In this document: positions 9,573 through 50,500 of the stretch, in pieces
Layout of the letters: the number at the start of each line of letters is the position of its first letter
How positions within the stretch are numbered: the stretch's first letter is position 1
From: Patescibacteria group bacterium
GTDB lineage: Bacteria; Patescibacteriota; Doudnabacteria; UBA920; O2-02-FULL-48-8
Reading direction: 5' to 3'
NCBI GenBank assembly: GCA_036278915.1
Contig: DASUKB010000002.1
Location: 95,162-159,161 of the forward strand
Length of the DNA stretch: 64,000 nt
The notes under the pieces: model-generated
Told to the model about the DNA's origin: nothing
Database searches by the model: none
The model's input: the letters and a program-made list of their open reading frames with translations, nothing else
Translations under genes and position numbers: made by a program

Positions 9573-9836
9573 CTTTGGAATTCCTTACCAGCAATCTCCC
9601 TTTATAGTTCCCGCCCGCCGAATTTTAGCTCGGAAGGTTATGGGTAAAGGCAGTTGATAGTTTGGTCAGACCTTTATTAAGGACTTAAAGAACAGGTTGC
9701 GGGCTTTTTACAAAAAAGCTTAATTTATTGGGCTTTTTTGTTGCCAACCCCACCCTCCGGAGAGGGATGGGGTACGCAACTATAGATATTAGCATAAAAC
9801 GGGAGTTTTGTCAATAGCTTACGCTTGGATCCTGAA

Positions 9837-14030: not shown

Positions 14031-14217
14031 GGGCCCGTAGTAAAGTGCTACACGGCATTCGCACTCGCCTGCCTTACTTGTGGCGGGGATATAGTAAAGT
14101 GGCATTACGCCGCATTCGCATTGCGGAGGCGAGAGTTCGATTCTCTCTATCTCCACCAGAAGTAAGGTCGGGGGCAGGTCGCAGAGGCGGGAGTTCGATT
14201 CTCCACGGGTCCACCAG
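14031..14217 (+). other. Composite tRNA-Ala locus: 5' fragment of an Ala-like tRNA (14031-14069), complementary arm, intact tRNA-Ala(CGC), complementary arm, 3' fragment with T-arm and CCA (14179-14217)
   Basis: Outer ends GGGCCCG...CGGGTCC-A-CCA can pair as an acceptor stem with G3:U70; arms CCTGCCTTACTT and AAGTAAGG..GGCAGG are complementary. Confidence 0.6.
14085..14158 (+). tRNA. tRNA-Ala (anticodon CGC), intact inner copy
   Basis: Acceptor GGGGATA/TATCTCC with G3:U70, anticodon loop TTCGCAT, T-arm GAGAGTTCGATTCTCTC, CCA encoded. Confidence 0.8.
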
Positions 14218-14221
14218 AAAA

Positions 14222-14326
14222 GCTCGGACATCAGTTTTTTTCGGACACGTCCCGCTTGGCGCGGGACTAAATGCTCGGCCATTGGAATGGCCTCGCAGTT
14301 GTCCTCAAAAAACTGCTGTCCTCGCT
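14222..14326. repeat. Left copy of a ~105-bp inverted repeat (IR-L) starting 5 nt after a tRNA CCA end
   Basis: Reverse complement matches 17440-17543 with ~3 mismatches; contains internal palindromes GTCCCGC-TTGGC-GCGGGAC and GGCCATT-GG-AATGGCC. Confidence 0.9.
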
Positions 14327-14375: not shown

Positions 14376-15701
14376 AGTTTGCACTAATTTATGTAATTCT
14401 TCGCGTACAATAGTTCGTTCGTCCCAGGGTATCGCACCGTTTTTCGTCATCATGGTCTGCTCTGCTCCTTTGCCTGCAATGATTAGGACATCCCCCGCTT
14501 TTGCCAGCGATAGGGCCTTGGCAATGCCGCCGCGGCGATCCGGATTGCGGAATAGTGTTTGCCCGATGATTTTGCCGTGCGCTACGGCCGCGTCTGCTAT
14601 TTCGTGAATTATATCCTGCGGATTATCATCGTAGGGGTCTTCGTTAGTGACCACAACGAGATCCGATTTTTTGGCGGCGGTTTCGCCCATTTGCGCTCGT
14701 TTGGCGCGGTCGCGTCCCCCGCCCTGGCCGCCGGTGACTAGGATAACGCGATTTGTCCCTGCAATTTTTCTGGCTGCATCAAGTACGGTGTTTAGGCTTA
14801 AATTTTCGTGAGCATAGTCCACGATCACCGTGAAATTCTGACCTTCGTCGATTTTTTCCATGCGACCAGGAATTATTTTTACATTGGAAATCCCTGTCCT
14901 GGTGGCATCTCCTTGAAGTTTAAGCGTTTCAGCCAAAGCCAAAGCTGGCAGCGCGTTGTAGACATTAAATTTTCCGAGCACCGAGAGATGCGCTGGTTTA
15001 TTTTTTACATCAAAATCCACACCCTCCGAGGTTTCCCGAATATTTTCCGCAACGATGTCCGCTTTTGGATTTAAGCCGTAAGTAATTTTCAAATCAGCTG
15101 GAAAATTGTAAAAGAATTCTTTGCGGGGATCGTCGTAATTTATAATACTCACCCGCTTTACGTACTTGCCATTCAGTTGTTTGGCGTTTTCCATGAGCGA
15201 TGCAAACAATTTGCCCTTGGTCTGTTTGTAATTGTCAAAACTTCCGCCGTGCGATTCCAAATGTTCGGGTGAAAGATTTGTAAACACCGCACAATCAAAG
15301 ATAATTCCCACGTGGCGGTACATCAGAATCCCCTCGCTCGTTACCTCAAGCACCGCGTGCGTACAGCCGGAGTGAACCATTTCCGAAAGCATCTTCTGCA
15401 GCCGGAACGGCCCGGGCATGGTCATATGCATATTATTGAGCAGTTCCCTGTCCCCTAACTTTAGATTTGCTGTGCCAATTTGTCCTGTTTTGAATCCGGC
15501 AGCCGTGAGTACGCTCCAAATGAAATTCGCAGATGACGTTTTACCTTTTGTGCCGGTAATCCCAATGACGTACATTTTCCTGGACGGATTGCCATACAGT
15601 ATGCAGGCCGCTCGCGCCAACAAATAATGGTAGGTCTGAAGCACAAACTTTGGCGTCAGCTTTCTGATGATTTTTTTTAATTTATGCAATGTGTTCATCA
15701 A
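14373..15701 (-). CDS. Mur ligase family protein (MurE-like)
   Basis: GITGTKGKTS P-loop of Mur ligases, DYAHE motif, C-terminal Mur ligase domain; lies inside the IR-bounded cassette. Confidence 0.7.
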   Translation of the reverse strand: MMNTLHKLKKIIRKLTPKFVLQTYHYLLARAACILYGNPSRKMYVIGITGTKGKTSSANFIWSVLTAAGFKTGQIGTANLKLGDRELLNNMHMTMPGPFRLQKMLSEMVHSGCTHAVLEVTSEGILMYRHVGIIFDCAVFTNLSPEHLESHGGSFDNYKQTKGKLFASLMENAKQLNGKYVKRVSIINYDDPRKEFFYNFPADLKITYGLNPKADIVAENIRETSEGVDFDVKNKPAHLSVLGKFNVYNALPALALAETLKLQGDATRTGISNVKIIPGRMEKIDEGQNFTVIVDYAHENLSLNTVLDAARKIAGTNRVILVTGGQGGGRDRAKRAQMGETAAKKSDLVVVTNEDPYDDNPQDIIHEIADAAVAHGKIIGQTLFRNPDRRGGIAKALSLAKAGDVLIIAGKGAEQTMMTKNGAIPWDERTIVREELHKLVQT

Positions 15702-16998
15702 AGTCGCGATATCCGGCTATAAGGCCCAAACTTAAGAAGAAAAGTAATTGTCCCTGCTGAATTGTAACAAGAAAATGGTCAAACAGCGACATAATCAGCA
15801 AACTGCCGCCTAAAATTAATAATGTGAAACGCAAAAGCGTCGGCGAAGAAGCTGCCAGCCGAACTGCAATGACAATCAAATAGCTTAAGAACAATATCAA
15901 TCCCAAAATTCCCATGCTGGCTGCAATGTAAATAAAAATATTATGCGGTGGCTGATAATCCCAAGGTTGCATGTTAAACTTGGTAACCATGGTTTGGATG
16001 TAATTGCCTAAACCTGTACCCCATGGGTGATTTCGTAAAATCTGTAATCCAATATTGTTGTAGGTCCCGCGATCTATATATGAATTCGTACTGGAGATAT
16101 TGGAAACTCGGCCAAATAGCAAGTTGTGCCAGGAGACAAGGATTATGAAACAAGAAATTACAGCAGAAGTTATTATTTGCACATAAATTCTCCATTTTGT
16201 CAAGGAAAAGTTATAAATTATATAAATTAGGGTTGTCAGAGCTGCAATTAGCCAAGACACTCGTGAAAAGCTTAGAAATATTCCCACGATAAGTAAAATG
16301 CTTCCAATCCCCAATAAAATACGGGTGTTTTGGTTTGTTTCACGTGAGACATACCAATATCCCATAATTAAACTCAAGCATAAAAATGCGCCGAATATAT
16401 TGGGATGGGGGAATGTACCGTAGGCTCGAATGACTTTACCACCCATAAAATCCAAAGTAGCTAATCCGCCTGTTCCCAAAGGAGCAATATATTCGCCTAA
16501 GAGACGCAATCCGATATCGTGTTGCATATGAAACTGGATTATTCCAAGTACAGCTTGAAAAATTCCAGATAGATACAATATGCCAGCTGTAATTCGGAAG
16601 AACATAAGATTTCGGAACGTACTGGCCACATAAAAGACCAGAAATATAAACTCAACCAGTTTAAATAAGCTATAAACTTCAAAAAAACTGTGTTGCACAT
16701 GCAACCAGCCAATTAATGATGTGAATATTAAGCCTAATGTAAGCCAAAAGATGGGATTACGTAAGTTTAACGTTGTTTTAAAAGTTTTTATGTTTTCCAC
16801 AAGAAACGCTACGAAACAGCAGATCAATAAAAGATCAGAAATATATAAGAAAATTGCCAAGTACGAAGAAAAATAGCCGTGAATGTAAGCTGATTCTGGT
16901 TGGTAGATTACACGCAGGTTAAAAGGAATGGTTATTAGAAAAGCCCAAAAAAATATCTGATTAATTTTTTGAGCTTTAATAATTGACAAAATAGACAT
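15682..16998 (-). CDS. O-antigen ligase/polymerase (Wzy_C/WaaL) family membrane protein
   Basis: ~11-12 predicted TM helices with a large periplasmic loop; markedly AT-rich (~33% GC) versus ~48% in surrounding genes. Confidence 0.55.
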   Translation of the reverse strand: MSILSIIKAQKINQIFFWAFLITIPFNLRVIYQPESAYIHGYFSSYLAIFLYISDLLLICCFVAFLVENIKTFKTTLNLRNPIFWLTLGLIFTSLIGWLHVQHSFFEVYSLFKLVEFIFLVFYVASTFRNLMFFRITAGILYLSGIFQAVLGIIQFHMQHDIGLRLLGEYIAPLGTGGLATLDFMGGKVIRAYGTFPHPNIFGAFLCLSLIMGYWYVSRETNQNTRILLGIGSILLIVGIFLSFSRVSWLIAALTTLIYIIYNFSLTKWRIYVQIITSAVISCFIILVSWHNLLFGRVSNISSTNSYIDRGTYNNIGLQILRNHPWGTGLGNYIQTMVTKFNMQPWDYQPPHNIFIYIAASMGILGLILFLSYLIVIAVRLAASSPTLLRFTLLILGGSLLIMSLFDHFLVTIQQGQLLFFLSLGLIAGYRDFDEHIA

Positions 16999-17439: not shown

Positions 17440-17543
17440 GCGAGGACAGCAGTTTTTTGAGGACAACTGCGAGGTCTTTCCAATGGCCGAGCATTTAGTC
17501 CCGCGGCAAGCGGGACGTGTCCGAAAAAAACTGATGTCCGAGC
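17440..17543. repeat. Right copy of the ~105-bp inverted repeat (IR-R)
   Basis: Reverse complement of 14222-14326; followed after 6 nt by a tRNA-Pro 3'-end fragment in inverted orientation. Confidence 0.9.
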
Positions 17544-17549
17544 GTTCTC

Positions 17550-17568
17550 TGGTCGGGGTGCTGGGAAT
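17550..17568 (-). repeat. 19-nt duplicate of the tRNA-Pro 3' end (TGGTCGGGGTGCTGGGAAT), direct repeat with 17697-17715
   Basis: Exact 19-nt match covering CCA, the acceptor 3' strand and part of the T-arm. Confidence 0.85.
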
Positions 17569-17696: not shown

Positions 17697-17770
17697 TGGT
17701 CGGGGTGCTGGGAATTGAACCCAGTCTACACGAACCCGAATCGTGCGTACTACCGGTATACGACACCCCG
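17697..17770 (-). tRNA. tRNA-Pro (anticodon CGG)
   Basis: Reverse complement reads CGGGGTG...anticodon loop TTCGGGT...T-arm CTGGGTTCAATTCCCAG...CACCCCG-A-CCA. Confidence 0.8.
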
Positions 17771-17809
17771 TGGTCATCGCAGACATTATATTATTTTTTG
17801 ACACAAAAG

Positions 17810-17834
17810 AAAACCGCCTTATCAGCGGTTTTTT
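17810..17834 (-). terminator. Rho-independent terminator downstream of gene 17858..18367
   Basis: AAAACCGCC-TTATCA-GCGGTTTTTT. Confidence 0.75.
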
Positions 17835-17857
17835 GGACTCTGATTATTTACTGTTCA

Positions 17858-18367
17858 CTATTTACGAAGCAAATACCAAAGACAGGGGAGTACCGTGACT
17901 ACTTGAGTGGCAATCCCAAGTGGCCAGAACCGAGACATAGGGAAGTGGGCACGCCATGTTTCATGAATTGCCAAGTGGAGTGTGTGGAACTGTTTAAAAA
18001 GGGAGAATTGGTGCAGTTTTTTGGCCCAAAGCGGAAGATTGTCAACCAAATCTGGCAGATATCCGCCGCCTGCACCCCAGGCAAACATGGAGAAGAAATT
18101 AAAATTGTCCCGATAATGCCAAATTACTAACACAATTAAGAACGCAAGCAGGGAATCGGCAATAGCAAATGTGAGGAGGCCTTTGGACCATTGAATTTCT
18201 CCATCCGGAGATAATGGTGGATTAATCGGGCCGTCGAGATGGGGGAGAAGATCACAAACTAAATGGGATGCGATGCCTGTAGCCAGACCCAAAGCGGGAT
18301 TTTGTGAAACGGCACCCACGGCTACACCAACTGCGCCGCCGATAATAACATGAGAAGTGGCAATCAT
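17858..18367 (-). CDS. Membrane-bound metal-dependent hydrolase, YdjM/DUF457-like
   Basis: MIATSHVIIGGAVG...HLVCDLLPHLD His-rich N-terminus and 3-4 TM helices resemble the SOS-regulated YdjM family. Confidence 0.45.
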   Translation of the reverse strand: MIATSHVIIGGAVGVAVGAVSQNPALGLATGIASHLVCDLLPHLDGPINPPLSPDGEIQWSKGLLTFAIADSLLAFLIVLVIWHYRDNFNFFSMFAWGAGGGYLPDLVDNLPLWAKKLHQFSLFKQFHTLHLAIHETWRAHFPMSRFWPLGIATQVVTVLPCLWYLLRK

Positions 18368-19046: not shown

Positions 19047-19760
19047 TCACGCCTGAGTGGGTGGGGTAAACGACACCAGGTGGTGTAGCGGATGGTGGGC
19101 GTAGCGAGCCGCAATCTCCCGGACCAGCCAGATTTTTGGATTGGCTGGTCCGGACTGGATCGATCTCGAATCAAATTCAGTCACGTTCTGCTCGGGCACG
19201 ATTGGAGAGATGCCCATCTTCCAAGCAATCGCGAGCGCGCGCACGAGCATGGCTTTGTGCGCGATGATCGCCGGCCTGCTGCACCCGCGCAACTTGGAAA
19301 TGCGGATGCATTCCTGCATGCCGTCGACGGTTGAGAAGTACGGTTTGTCCGCAGGCGGCCAGAAGGGAATGATCGGCGCGGTGGACTCTTCAATCCACTG
19401 CGGATCATCCTTGAGCATGGCCAGCGGGACCTCGAACTGGGCAATCATGGGGATGCCTGGTTTCCAGAAATCCAGGATGTTGGCAGCCACATGGGCCAAT
19501 GCCAGGTTTGGTCGGCCCGGATCGAGCCCCCGCGCATTGAGCAATTTCAATGCGTCCAGGTCGTTGCCTTTGGTCTTTTCACGGACCTTGGCAATTTCGG
19601 CGCCGAGTTCAGTGTCGGTGTAGGTGTTGCGACCGAACGCAAACACCCACAAGCAGTCTGCGTCCCGGATGTTGCCGAGACTCGGGCACGCGTTCTTCCA
19701 CGGTCGGAAGTAATCGTGCCGCACGCGTGCGACGGTTTCGGCGTCAATGGCTTGTGCCAC
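19047..19760 (-). CDS. Hypothetical protein (237 aa), GC-rich, no recognisable family
   Basis: Long ORF with composition distinct from the flanking housekeeping genes. Confidence 0.4.
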   Translation of the reverse strand: MAQAIDAETVARVRHDYFRPWKNACPSLGNIRDADCLWVFAFGRNTYTDTELGAEIAKVREKTKGNDLDALKLLNARGLDPGRPNLALAHVAANILDFWKPGIPMIAQFEVPLAMLKDDPQWIEESTAPIIPFWPPADKPYFSTVDGMQECIRISKLRGCSRPAIIAHKAMLVRALAIAWKMGISPIVPEQNVTEFDSRSIQSGPANPKIWLVREIAARYAHHPLHHLVSFTPPTQA

Positions 19761-19830: not shown

Positions 19831-19859
19831 TTGTCAATCATACGGATTTTCTGTAAAAT
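19831..19859 (+). promoter_or_regulatory. Sigma70-type promoter (TTGTCA-17-TAAAAT) upstream of the composite tRNA-Arg locus
   Basis: Consensus-like boxes with 17-nt spacer. Confidence 0.6.
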
Positions 19860-19882: not shown

Positions 19883-20071
19883 GCCCTCGTAGCTCAATGG
19901 ATACCCGCCCGACTCGCCTGACGGTCTCGTAGCTCAATGGATAGAGCAGCGCCGTCCTAAGGCGTTGATGCCGGTTCGACTCCAGCCGAGGCCACCAGAG
20001 GAGTCAGGCGGGCGGGGAGCAGGCCCGATCCTTTGGGCAAGATGGGGGTTCGATTCCCTTTGAGGTCGCCA
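19883..20071 (+). other. Composite tRNA-Arg locus: outer Arg-like tRNA interrupted in its D-loop (after 19903) by arm + intact tRNA-Arg(CCT) + arm; the outer copy resumes at 20017
   Basis: 18-nt direct repeat CTCGTAGCTCAATGGATA (19886-19903 and 19926-19943); arms CCCGCCCGACTCGCCTGAC and GTCAGGCGGGCGGG are complementary; outer ends GCCCTCG / TGAGGTC-G-CCA pair at 6 of 7 positions. Confidence 0.6.
19923..19997 (+). tRNA. tRNA-Arg (anticodon CCT), inner copy
   Basis: Acceptor GGTCTCG/CGAGGCC, anticodon loop GTCCTAA, T-loop TTCGACT (one C-A mismatch in the T-stem), CCA encoded. Confidence 0.7.
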
Positions 20072-36137: not shown

Positions 36138-36166
36138 TTGTTATGTAAGAGGAAACAAGTTATAAT
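36138..36166 (+). promoter_or_regulatory. Sigma70-type promoter (TTGTTA-17-TATAAT) for the composite tRNA-Ile unit
   Basis: 17-nt spacer; followed by a small hairpin CAGAAAG-TTAAAT-CTTTCTG plus T4. Confidence 0.6.
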
Positions 36167-36200: not shown

Positions 36201-36367
36201 AGCGGTAGAACAAATGTCTTACCCGCCCGACCGAACGACTTTATGGGCATGTAGCTCAGCGGTAGAGCAAATGTCTTATACACATTGGGTCCCTGGTTCG
36301 AATCCAGGCATGCCCACCATAATTTCAATCAATCGTTCGGTCGTTCGGAATCCTTCCTGGCCCACCA
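36201..36367 (+). other. Composite tRNA-Ile locus: 21-nt 5' fragment homologous to D-loop-to-anticodon of tRNA-Ile (36201-36221), arm CCCGCCCGACCGAACGAC, intact tRNA-Ile(TAT), arm GTCGTTCGGTCG..., 3' fragment TTCGGAATCCTTCCTGGCCCACCA
   Basis: AGCGGTAGAACAAATGTCTTA matches AGCGGTAGAGCAAATGTCTTA within the intact tRNA; arms are mutually complementary; the 5' arm begins CCCGCCCGAC, as at the Arg locus. Confidence 0.6.
36245..36319 (+). tRNA. tRNA-Ile (anticodon TAT)
   Basis: Acceptor GGGCATG/CATGCCC, anticodon loop CTTATAC, T-arm CCTGGTTCGAATCCAGG, CCA encoded. Confidence 0.75.
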
Positions 36368-36407
36368 ATAAACAAGTGTCAGTTCTGCAAACAAAATGTA
36401 CTTTGTG

Positions 36408-36429
36408 GAAAACCCGGATAGGGTTTTTT
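36408..36429 (+). terminator. Rho-independent terminator after the tRNA-Ile unit
   Basis: AAAACCCGGATAGGGTTTTTT. Confidence 0.75.
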
Positions 36430-36487
36430 ATTTTGCCTTATTTTCTTAATATTTAGGAGCTCTTGACAGTAGGTGAACGATCGTATA

Positions 36488-50316: not shown

Positions 50317-50391
50317 GGACGGTTAGCTCAGTGGTAGAGCATCTCTTTGACGTAGAGAGGGTCGCTGGTTCGATCCCAGCACCGTCCACCA
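50317..50391 (+). tRNA. tRNA-Val (anticodon GAC)
   Basis: Acceptor GGACGGT/ACCGTCC, anticodon loop TTGACGT, T-arm GCTGGTTCGATCCCAGC, CCA encoded. Confidence 0.85.
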
Positions 50392-50447
50392 GGGAAGGTT
50401 CTCCGCCAACAATAACTATCCTTATGAGGCGGATCCGCCTCAGGCGG

Positions 50448-50500
50448 AAAGTCCTCTACCGTCCACCAGAAAACGCTCGGGCCAGAAAAATTTTTTCCCG
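50448..50500 (+). repeat. 12-nt duplicate of the tRNA-Val 3' end (ACCGTCCACCA) followed by GAAAACGCTCGGG...TTTTTTCCCGAACGC, a degenerate copy of the IR-L start
   Basis: Compare CCACCA-GAAAA-GCTCGGACATCAGTTTTTTTCGGACACG at 14212-14248. Confidence 0.6.

Follow-up and report, generated by a model that had tools for sequence, protein, structure and literature searches.

A 64,000-nucleotide stretch of a metagenome-assembled genome (MAG) of a Patescibacteria group bacterium (contig DASUKB010000002.1, positions 95,162 to 159,161; hereafter the window) includes three loci, for tRNA-Ala(CGC), tRNA-Arg(CCT) and tRNA-Ile(TAT), that share an unusual layout. In each, a canonical tRNA gene is flanked by two complementary arms, and this cassette interrupts a second tRNA gene with an identical anticodon, so that each locus begins with the 5' part of the outer tRNA, continues with the left arm, the inner tRNA and the right arm, and ends with the 3' part of the outer tRNA (Table 1). 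Nesting of this kind was proposed in an original prediction made from the letters of the window. It was confirmed at all three loci when these were re-read, and the positions and sequences quoted were all correct, except that the left arm of the Ala cassette was extended to start at 14064 instead of 14068. Related loci in other assemblies are referred to below by L numbers.

Organisation of the Ala, Arg and Ile loci

The inner tRNAs were the sole genes called at the three loci by ARAGORN and Rfam. A single covariance-model call per locus, which the original prediction regarded as a ground for abandoning the nested layout, was thus obtained; it is not decisive, because covariance models are blind to genes split by more than 100 nt. 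The arm helices, for which a folding check had been proposed, are present in the minimum-free-energy (MFE) folds of all three loci, with z values against dinucleotide shuffles of -5.2 at the Ala locus, -2.4 at Arg and -2.6 at Ile. The inserts, including that of the Arg locus and the Ile cassette of L146 described below, are 113–136 nt long, and the inner tRNA makes up 74–77 nt of each.

Table 1. Features of the three nested tRNA loci (window coordinates)
Locus	Feature	Position	Strand	Basis or comparison
Ala	Outer (resident) tRNA-Ala(CGC), 5' part, positions 1-37	14031..14063	+	Alignment to uninterrupted L001:15523-15596
Ala	Cassette left arm CTCGCCTGCCTTACTT	14064..14079	+	Pairs with 14160-14178 in MFE fold
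Ala	Spacer GTGGC after left arm	14080-14084	+	
Ala	Inner intact tRNA-Ala(CGC), cargo	14085..14158	+	ARAGORN; Rfam tRNA, 67.2 bits
Ala	Cassette right arm AAGTAAGGTCGGGGGCAGG	14160..14178	+	MFE fold
Ala	Outer tRNA-Ala, 3' part, positions 38-76 with CCA	14179..14216	+	Alignment to L001
Arg	Promoter-like TTGTCA-17-TAAAAT upstream of outer tRNA-Arg	19831..19859	+	Hexamers conserved in L122
Arg	Outer tRNA-Arg(CCT), 5' part, positions 1-21, D-loop end ...AATGGATA	19883..19903	+	21/21 identical to L122
Arg	Cassette left arm CCCGCCCG-ACTCG-CCTGAC, abutting inner tRNA	19904..19922	+	18/19 identical to L122
Arg	Inner intact tRNA-Arg(CCT), cargo	19923..19997	+	ARAGORN; Rfam, 55.8 bits
Arg	Spacer GAGGA before right arm	19998-20002	+	0% identical to L122
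Arg	Cassette right arm GTCAGG-CGGGCGGG	20003..20016	+	14/14 identical to L122
Arg	Outer tRNA-Arg, 3' part, positions 22-76	20017..20071	+	Alignments; ARAGORN on insert-deleted sequence
Ile	Promoter-like TTGTTA-17-TATAAT upstream of locus	36138..36166	+	
Ile	Outer tRNA-Ile(TAT) remnant, D-loop to anticodon position 35 (AGCGGTAGAACAAATGTCTTA)	36201..36221	+	Positions 1-13 lost
Ile	Cassette left arm CCCGCCCGACCGAACGAC	36222..36239	+	Left half of L137-type palindrome
Ile	Inner intact tRNA-Ile(TAT), cargo	36245..36319	+	ARAGORN; Rfam, 74.5 bits
Ile	Cassette right arm ATCGTTCGGTCGTTCGG	36332..36348	+	Right half of L137-type palindrome minus terminal GCGGG
Ile	Outer tRNA-Ile, 3' remnant (AATCCTTCCTGGCCCACCA)	36349..36367	+	
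Ile	Terminator-like site	36405-36431		

At the Ala locus, the insert separates positions 37 and 38 of the outer tRNA, in the anticodon loop. With the insert removed, the outer tRNA-Ala is identical at 66 of 74 positions to the uninterrupted tRNA-Ala(CGC) of the syntenic Doudnabacteria contig L001, and the acceptor stem (5' strand GGGCCCG, 3' strand likewise identical), with the G3:U70 pair that had been pointed out earlier, is the same in both genes. The D-loop is 3 nt shorter than in the L001 orthologue, the 3' strand of the anticodon stem has two mismatches, and the T arm is the same except for one base missing from its 3' strand. Relaxed ARAGORN searches over all Ala splice junctions gave some call at nearly every junction and hence were uninformative.

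At the Arg locus, an insert of about 113 nt had been placed in the D-loop, with the D-stem strand GAGC resuming at 20017; it is now defined as the 113 nt at 19904-20016, between positions 21 and 22 and directly before GAGC. The left arm consists of an 8-nt GC clamp, a 5-nt bulge and the strand of a second helix. The 3' part of the outer tRNA has a 1-nt insertion and two substitutions in the anticodon loop, as well as a C2:U71 mismatch. When the insert is deleted, the outer gene forms a cloverleaf with a 6-nt anticodon loop, is called 'tRNA-?(cc)' by ARAGORN, and is identical to tRNA-Arg(CCT) of L001 at 65 of 76 positions.

At the Ile locus, the insert lies between positions 35 and 36, inside the anticodon. 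The outer tRNA is cut down to 21 + 19 nt, positions 1–13 and 36 to about 57 being gone, and the two arms correspond to the halves of an L137-type palindrome (see below) opened by the tRNA.

A promoter and terminator of its own had been ascribed to each locus. Promoter-like sites were found at Arg and Ile and a terminator-like site at Ile only, while neither was found at Ala. Both promoter-like sites are upstream of the outer 5' fragment and never within the insert, the inserts having no promoter of their own. The Arg promoter hexamers are kept in L122, although the remaining flank is only ~39% identical.

As had been suspected earlier, all three outer copies in the window are damaged and probably non-functional, given the 6-nt anticodon loop of Arg, the lesions of Ala and the reduction of Ile to 21 + 19 nt. 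Outer copies that are intact after removal of the insert occur in L122 (Arg) and L146 (Ile). These findings bear on the suggestion of a split or permuted tRNA, in which, after release of the inner tRNA by RNase P and RNase Z, the outer halves would be held by the arms as a functional two-piece tRNA. The arms together with the acceptor and D stems could keep the halves in contact, and the Arg break, being in the D-loop, could in principle leave the anticodon arm whole. However, the inserts at Ile (35/36) and in tRNA-Cys of L001 (33/34) cut in or beside the anticodon, that at Ala breaks the anticodon loop, and the outer Arg tRNA of the window has a loop of only 6 nt. The Arg insert further adjoins A20/A21, of which A20 is a major identity element for arginyl-tRNA synthetase (ArgRS), and outer copies decay in most lineages. 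A functional split tRNA is therefore very unlikely.

The genes of the window are chromosomal and include those for IF-2, LexA, RecA, RNase HII, RNase III, a Mur ligase and bactofilin. The closest genomes are MAGs of Candidatus Doudnabacteria; the Mur ligase is 71% identical to that of L001, and LexA is 88–91% identical to the proteins of many Doudnabacteria. A phage origin of the window was rejected, since the genes are chromosomal and megablast against phage records gave no match. ARAGORN finds 14 tRNA genes in the window, and CCA is encoded in all 14.

Resident genes, arriving copies and the conserved arms

In L001, the tRNA-Ala(CGC) and tRNA-Arg(CCT) genes are uninterrupted at the corresponding sites and match the outer halves in the window; further uninterrupted genes are present in L131 (Ala) and L144 (Ile). 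Compared with the L001 genes, which represent the resident type, the inner Ala and Arg tRNAs show paired changes, with both strands altered, in the acceptor, anticodon and T stems. Because the uninterrupted tRNAs of relatives match the outer halves and not the inner tRNAs, the outer tRNA is taken as the resident gene and the inner one as having come with the insert. The reverse polymorphism is seen at tRNA-Cys, which is intact in the window and nested in L001 (arms CCGACCCAAAATTT and AAATTTTGGCGTCGG, insert at 33/34); the 3' remnant of the nested L001 gene matches tRNA-Cys of the window.

L146 (Candidatus Doudnabacteria RIFCSPLOWO2_02_FULL_49_13, record MFEU01000009.1), whose LexA is 89% identical to that of the window, has tRNA-Ile(TAT) interrupted at exactly the same point, 35/36, by a cassette of 136 nt. 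Neither the arms of this cassette (CCCGCCTGCCACGCC and GGCATGGCGGGCAGG) nor the inner tRNA that they enclose is the same as in the Ile cassette of the window, and the two are regarded as independent insertions at one site.

As the window comes from a MAG and tRNA repeats can be mis-assembled, the nested loci could represent collapsed or chimeric tandem tRNA copies. However, precise nested junctions recur in independent assemblies, produced by several projects with different assemblers and deposited at NCBI, ENA and JGI (L122, L125, L130, L146–L148 and L001), and collapsed copies of one gene are not involved because the inner and outer sequences differ. The probability of an assembly artefact is thus negligible.

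The arms belong to a conserved family. In 1.28 Mb of Candidate Phyla Radiation (CPR) DNA, there are three occurrences of CCCGCCCGAC, all of them exactly at the break point of a tRNA. The 20-mer TCAATGGATACCCGCCCGAC, which spans the junction of the Arg D-loop and arm, gave nine metagenome matches, all nine at tRNA-Arg loci, three of which (L124, L128 and L129) represent two distinct loci of the hairpin-only type described below. Arm motifs next to tRNAs elsewhere, which the original prediction proposed to look for, are thus found. In the independent metagenome contigs L122, L125 and L130, a left arm CCCGCCCGAC(T/A)CGCCTGAC and a right arm GTCAGG(C/T)GGGCGGG are located at 21/22, and these near-identical arms enclose differing Arg-CCT or Arg-TCT tRNAs as cargo. 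L123/L126 and L127 have kept the 5' fragment, left arm and tRNA and have lost the right side. The tRNA-like segment of L127 (Ga0113563_10257874) has an acceptor 5' strand GTCCCCA that is unpaired with the 3' strand CAAGAGC, and ARAGORN finds no tRNA there; it appears to be an inner/outer recombinant remaining after loss of the right arm.

Comparison of the Arg locus of the window with that of L122 revealed a marked contrast between segments. The flanking DNA is 35–41% identical, apart from the retained promoter hexamers, and the spacer beside the right arm has no identity, whereas the arms together are identical at 32 of 33 positions and the outer 5' part throughout. The inner tRNAs are 87% identical, pairing in the acceptor stem being kept by compensatory changes. 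The outer 3' parts are also 87% identical, and every difference is a lesion on the side of the window. A neutral relic of a single ancient insertion would not be expected to give this pattern; it fits resident genes that may have been functional until hit separately, and would also fit arms under selection for mobility or processing.

The clamp of the L146 Ile cassette (CCCGCCTGCC / GGCGGGCAGG) resembles the Ala arms of the window (CTCGCCTGCC / GGGGGCAGG), and the three window cassettes are therefore assigned to one superfamily. Between its subfamilies, the interiors of the arms differ and complementarity is retained. A scan of viral contigs with GGATACCCGCCCGAC gave 41 matches, none of which is at a tRNA; all lie in coding DNA and are due to chance.

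Ordinary processes, namely att duplication by an integrase followed by deletion, or break repair or gene conversion with a foreign tRNA template, might also leave tRNA fragments of this sort, and recurrent gene-conversion scars had been listed among the explanations. Plain duplications of tRNA 3' ends are indeed present in the window at Pro (17550-17568) and Val (50458-50468). In L130, L074 and L129, the inner and outer tRNAs are identical over long stretches, and gene conversion therefore operates at these loci. However, att duplication had already been set aside because 5' fragments are present, and these accompany the 3' fragments at all three loci; the inserts are only ~115 nt long, with no integrase found by Pfam among the neighbouring genes. 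Moreover, the arms form a conserved family that recurs in unrelated lineages at the same nucleotide position, which random repair would not yield. Gene conversion is not supported as the sole cause, and an origin of the cassettes as scars of such processes is improbable.

Remnants of other kinds were also seen at tRNA genes. In the window, tRNA-Pro(CGG) (17697-17770, minus strand) is followed by a 128-nt insert and then by the exact 19-nt copy of its own 3' end. This insert contains an inverted T-arm-like segment and aligns over 108 nt, with 79% identity, to L001:18434-18539, which has tRNA-Gly(GCC) on one side and a copy of the 3' end of that tRNA on the other. The Pro insert seems to represent a further family of tRNA-targeted inserts, distinct from the cassettes and placed in the T-loop. 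A 3' remnant of another tRNA-Val allele (...GTCCTCTACCGTCCACCA), including the exact 11-mer at Val mentioned above, is located 66 nt downstream of tRNA-Val(GAC) (50317-50391). Between the two, a perfect 16-nt palindrome, GAGGCGGATCCGCCTC, starts at 50426, and no 5' remnant is visible.

A 54-nt inverted repeat (14213-14265 and 17500-17553, 94% identical) directly follows the CCA of both the outer tRNA-Ala and the Pro 3' remnant and contains a GC hairpin, GTCCCGC..GCGGGAC. Related motifs occur after the Val remnant (CCAGAAAACGCTCGG) and after several tRNAs of L001 (ACGCTCGG). In L060 (6850-7140), a tRNA-Ser(GGA) gene that has its own promoter and terminator is flanked by fragments of another Ser gene, a 5' one of 25 nt and a 3' one of 17 nt, and in L007 (3880-3997) a 22-nt 5' fragment is found 16 nt upstream of tRNA-Ile(TAT); GC-clamped arms are absent from both. 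A conserved non-coding stretch near tRNA-Leu genes (window 9610-9680; L001 ~19380-19450, minus strand), with no Rfam match, begins CCCGCCCG(C/G)CGAATTTT(A/G)GCTCG.AAGGT.ATGGGTA.AG.C.

Hairpin-only palindromes and 80-aa GIY-YIG genes

The GC-clamped ends also form hairpin-only palindromes of 35–48 nt, which are found in both orientations. In L124 (duplicated as L128), L129 and L074, there is no tRNA between the clamps, and a 35–36-nt palindrome, CCCGCCCG ACTGA .. TCAGT CRTT CGGGCGGG, occupies site 21/22 instead. The Arg arms share with this form their first 11 nt and the terminal GTCAG..CGGGCGGG. Two alternative pairings that exclude each other are possible in the interior of the palindrome (order a b .. 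a' b'), and each of them includes one compensatory change.

In L124 and L129, the outer gene runs on to the anticodon region, where it is interrupted by an open reading frame (ORF) of 80 aa, after which there is a complete tRNA-Arg. The ORF encodes a GIY-YIG catalytic domain and nothing else (PF01541, E = 5e-15 and 2e-12). Five further 80-aa homologues, with 56–69% identity, were found at Ala-TGC, Thr-TGT (two), Ala-GGC and Lys-TTT loci. All five have a promoter, tRNA positions 1–21 (1–13 in L136), the palindrome, GAGC with a few more bases, the GIY-YIG ORF and a complete tRNA of the same species. The succession of tRNA 5' fragment, palindrome, ORF and full tRNA is thus present in all seven distinct loci (L124, L129, L133, L136, L137, L138 and L142). 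The end of the ORF overlaps the downstream tRNA, and in most loci the stop codon is TAG formed by U8-A9-G10 of the tRNA. In L133, L138 and L142, the right clamp and D-stem strand (GGGG|GAGC) place GGAG 8 nt before the ATG, and the palindrome could therefore also gate translation.

The palindrome of L133 has the orientation opposite to that of L138, and L136 includes two identical copies that are oppositely oriented. In L131 (2032-2067), a 36-nt GC-clamped palindrome is located in frame within a membrane-protein gene resembling Wzy_C/O-antigen ligase genes, where it forms codons 220–231 (PARTTDSVQSGG); the window orthologue of this gene (15682-16998, minus strand) is ~10 aa shorter exactly at the palindrome point. 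The occurrence of both orientations and of the in-frame copy in a protein gene indicates that the palindrome is a DNA-level element.

These data also bear on an RNA-level explanation, according to which the insert is a tRNA-containing 'intron'. Marked by the arm helix, it would be excised and the outer halves joined again, a single transcript thus giving two tRNAs, the decayed outer copies of the window being secondary losses through redundancy. If true, this would amount to a protein-dependent tRNA splicing pathway unknown in bacteria. Removal of the insert leaves perfect outer tRNAs in L122 (Arg) and L146 (Ile), and the junctions are nucleotide-precise at the base of a strong helix; it is these features that keep the explanation under consideration. 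Conservation of the arms and the position of the Ala insert at 37/38, the canonical site of tRNA introns, also agree with it.

However, breaks or truncations affect most outer copies (the three of the window and those of L125, L130, L123/L126 and L127). The inserts of 113–136 nt have no group I core, as had been maintained from the start on account of their size; the window gave no Intron_gpI match, whether the gathering threshold or E<=10 was applied, and no credible family besides tRNA was found at the loci by Rfam at a permissive threshold. A bulge-helix-bulge (BHB) motif is likewise not formed, the junction being helix / 4+3-nt internal loop / helix in the L146 Ile cassette and, at Arg, having a loop of 8 nt on one side with none opposite. 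The palindrome behaves as a DNA element, as judged by its two orientations and the copy in frame in a protein gene, and each hairpin-bearing tRNA was seen accompanied by an intact copy. Excision at the RNA level is thus considered unlikely. Kink-turn (K-turn) and BHB readings of the arm bulge were rejected by inspection.

GIY-YIG ORFs were also observed directly upstream of tRNA-Pro and tRNA-Phe in L001 (7872-8260, minus strand, and 17722-18174). At the Pro locus, an outer 5' fragment, CGGGGTGGAGTATGCCGG, precedes a GC-rich hairpin of another sort, placed in the D-loop, and the Phe locus has long hairpins and no recognisable tRNA fragment. In L142/L143 (1998-2672), an ORF with a LAGLIDADG_3 domain, a second gene of homing-endonuclease type, is located ~190 nt downstream of the GIY-YIG/tRNA-Lys unit.

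Interpretation as mobile tRNA cassettes

At the nested loci, a cassette with inverted-repeat ends and a tRNA as cargo is placed precisely in the cognate resident gene, with no target duplication. These loci are probably mobile, self-compensating tRNA cassettes within decaying resident genes. A tRNA-carrying insertion element was one of the possibilities named in the original prediction, and it is supported by the empty and filled orthologous sites, the conserved arms with varied cargo, the recurrent site and the decay of the outer copies. The lack of a promoter in the inserts, the inclusion of the Ala arms in the same superfamily and the link between palindrome and GIY-YIG gene go beyond what a single window could reveal.

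The cassette would be a small non-coding, non-autonomous member of the GC-clamped palindromic family (CCCGCCCG...CGGGCGGG and variants), with a complete tRNA gene of the same anticodon from another lineage as its cargo. Insertion would be precise, without target duplication, and mostly into tRNA loop positions; the sites seen are 21/22 in the D-loop and 33/34, 35/36 and 37/38 in the anticodon loop. The ORF-bearing relatives would combine the palindrome with the 80-aa GIY-YIG nuclease gene and a replacement tRNA. Mobilisation may proceed via DNA cleavage and repair, and the GIY-YIG nuclease, acting in trans, is the foremost, though tentative, candidate for the mobilising or homing enzyme.

After insertion, the resident promoter would drive a precursor composed of the outer 5' piece, arm, tRNA, arm and outer 3' piece, from which RNase P and 3' processing would free the inner tRNA. 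The interrupted resident gene would then be redundant and non-functional and would decay. As tRNA genes in CPR bacteria are presumed usually to be single-copy, an insertion would survive only with a matching replacement, which may explain why the cargo always matches the target. The nested allele may also spread among relatives by homologous recombination via the outer halves and neighbouring genes.

Several findings weigh against the interpretation as mobile cassettes. No transposase, integrase or GIY-YIG gene was found in the window or within 10 kb of the nested Ile gene of L146. Searches for GIY-YIG genes by tblastn and with a profile hidden Markov model (HMM) built from four sequences were also negative for 79 of 80 Mur-ligase loci. 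The element family is low-copy: a covariance model of the hairpin found the window to be free of hairpin-only copies and, over 1.29 Mb, detected none beyond those already known. Unlike a classical miniature inverted-repeat transposable element (MITE), the cassettes show no target-site duplication, and their arms are not the same at the three window loci. The outer genes of L122 and L146, wholly intact apart from the insert, are also what excision at the RNA level predicts. Finally, the interpretation does not account for the presence of a tRNA in the apical loop of the palindrome.

Among known systems, mobile ORFs (mORFs) of fungal mitochondria (Allomyces macrogynus atp6; Glomus atp6, atp9, cox2 and nad3) bring a replacement for the displaced part of the gene, the native remnant matching the sister species and lying unexpressed downstream, and the inserted copy being divergent (PMC3630166). 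The cassettes resemble them in that the insert brings a foreign copy of the disrupted gene, the native remnant matches a close relative and the insert is divergent, and in that the ORF-bearing relatives (L124 and others) have a GIY-YIG gene. They differ in having a bacterial tRNA gene as the target, replacement of the whole gene, remnants on both sides of the insert and, in the window, no ORF and inverted-repeat arms as boundaries. An endonuclease gene inside the insert is absent from the window cassettes and present in L124, L129, L133, L136–L138, L142 and the Pro locus of L001.

SegB of phage T4 is a free-standing GIY-YIG homing endonuclease in a phage tRNA gene cluster, for which cleavage was demonstrated (PMC2330249). 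It shares with the units described here a GIY-YIG gene among tRNA genes, which promotes inheritance of the adjacent tRNA region. However, SegB is a full-size site-specific enzyme encoded between tRNA genes, with no palindrome or nested tRNA, whereas the 80-aa proteins consist of the catalytic domain only and are known from sequence.

Short mobile palindromes include Rickettsia palindromic elements, yeast mitochondrial GC clusters, repetitive extragenic palindromes with their associated transposases (REP/RAYT) and MITEs (see also PMC10969869). The present family is similar in being a small non-coding inverted repeat that occurs in either orientation and, in L131, as an in-frame part of a protein gene, and in its probable mobilisation in trans. 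It differs in its low copy number, lack of target duplication, strong preference for tRNA loops and tRNA cargo in the apical loop. We know of no report of a palindromic element with a complete tRNA gene as cargo.

As in MITEs, terminal inverted repeats are present, the complementary arms being found at all loci and conserved across lineages. Target-site duplications are absent: at Arg, AATGGATA|...|GAGC rejoins exactly, as do L122, L146 and the hairpin-only copies, and the Ala site is ambiguous, having TCGC on both sides of the insert. As to copy number, the window has three diverged cargo-bearing copies in 64 kb, L136 has its two identical copies, and no transposase was found.

Integrative elements that target tRNA genes and are bounded by attL and attR have an integrase gene and a length of kilobases, and the part of the tRNA that they duplicate is the 3' part alone. 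Like the cassettes, they supply tRNA sequence as compensation and leave tRNA fragments; the cassettes differ in carrying a full tRNA in ~115 nt and in leaving remnants of the 5' as well as the 3' part.

Disrupted tRNA genes with mobile BHB introns are known in archaea (PMC3293823, PMC4090602), and group I introns have been described in tRNAs of Patescibacteria (PMC13011429). These systems likewise have intervening sequences at several tRNA positions, the group I cases being from the same phylum; however, they are spliced and the gene is functional, whereas the cassettes have neither a BHB nor a group I core and the genes that they interrupt decay. Group I introns are ~200 nt or longer and leave a functional tRNA, which agrees neither with inserts of 113–136 nt nor with the damaged outer genes of the window. 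The cassettes therefore fall outside any one of these families, as they have no target duplication (MITEs), no resident endonuclease (homing ORFs) and no intron core or motif.

If the interpretation as mobile cassettes is correct, a mobile family of CPR/Patescibacteria hits essential single-copy tRNA genes and spares its host by bringing a replacement tRNA, a self-compensating strategy documented earlier for parts of mitochondrial protein genes. A literature search with incomplete coverage found no description of a tRNA nested in a cognate tRNA gene or of a palindrome/GIY-YIG/tRNA unit. The phenomenon escapes routine pipelines because standard tRNA finders report only the inner genes. The 80-aa GIY-YIG nuclease and the GC-clamped palindrome are possibly a new enzyme-element pair, in loose analogy to REP/RAYT. 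The interpretation would explain tRNA fragments and odd tRNA annotation in CPR genomes and would provide a route for horizontal replacement of tRNA genes. Five of the 14 tRNA loci of the window bear scars of tRNA-targeted insertions, and such insertion may be a major evolutionary force in reduced genomes.

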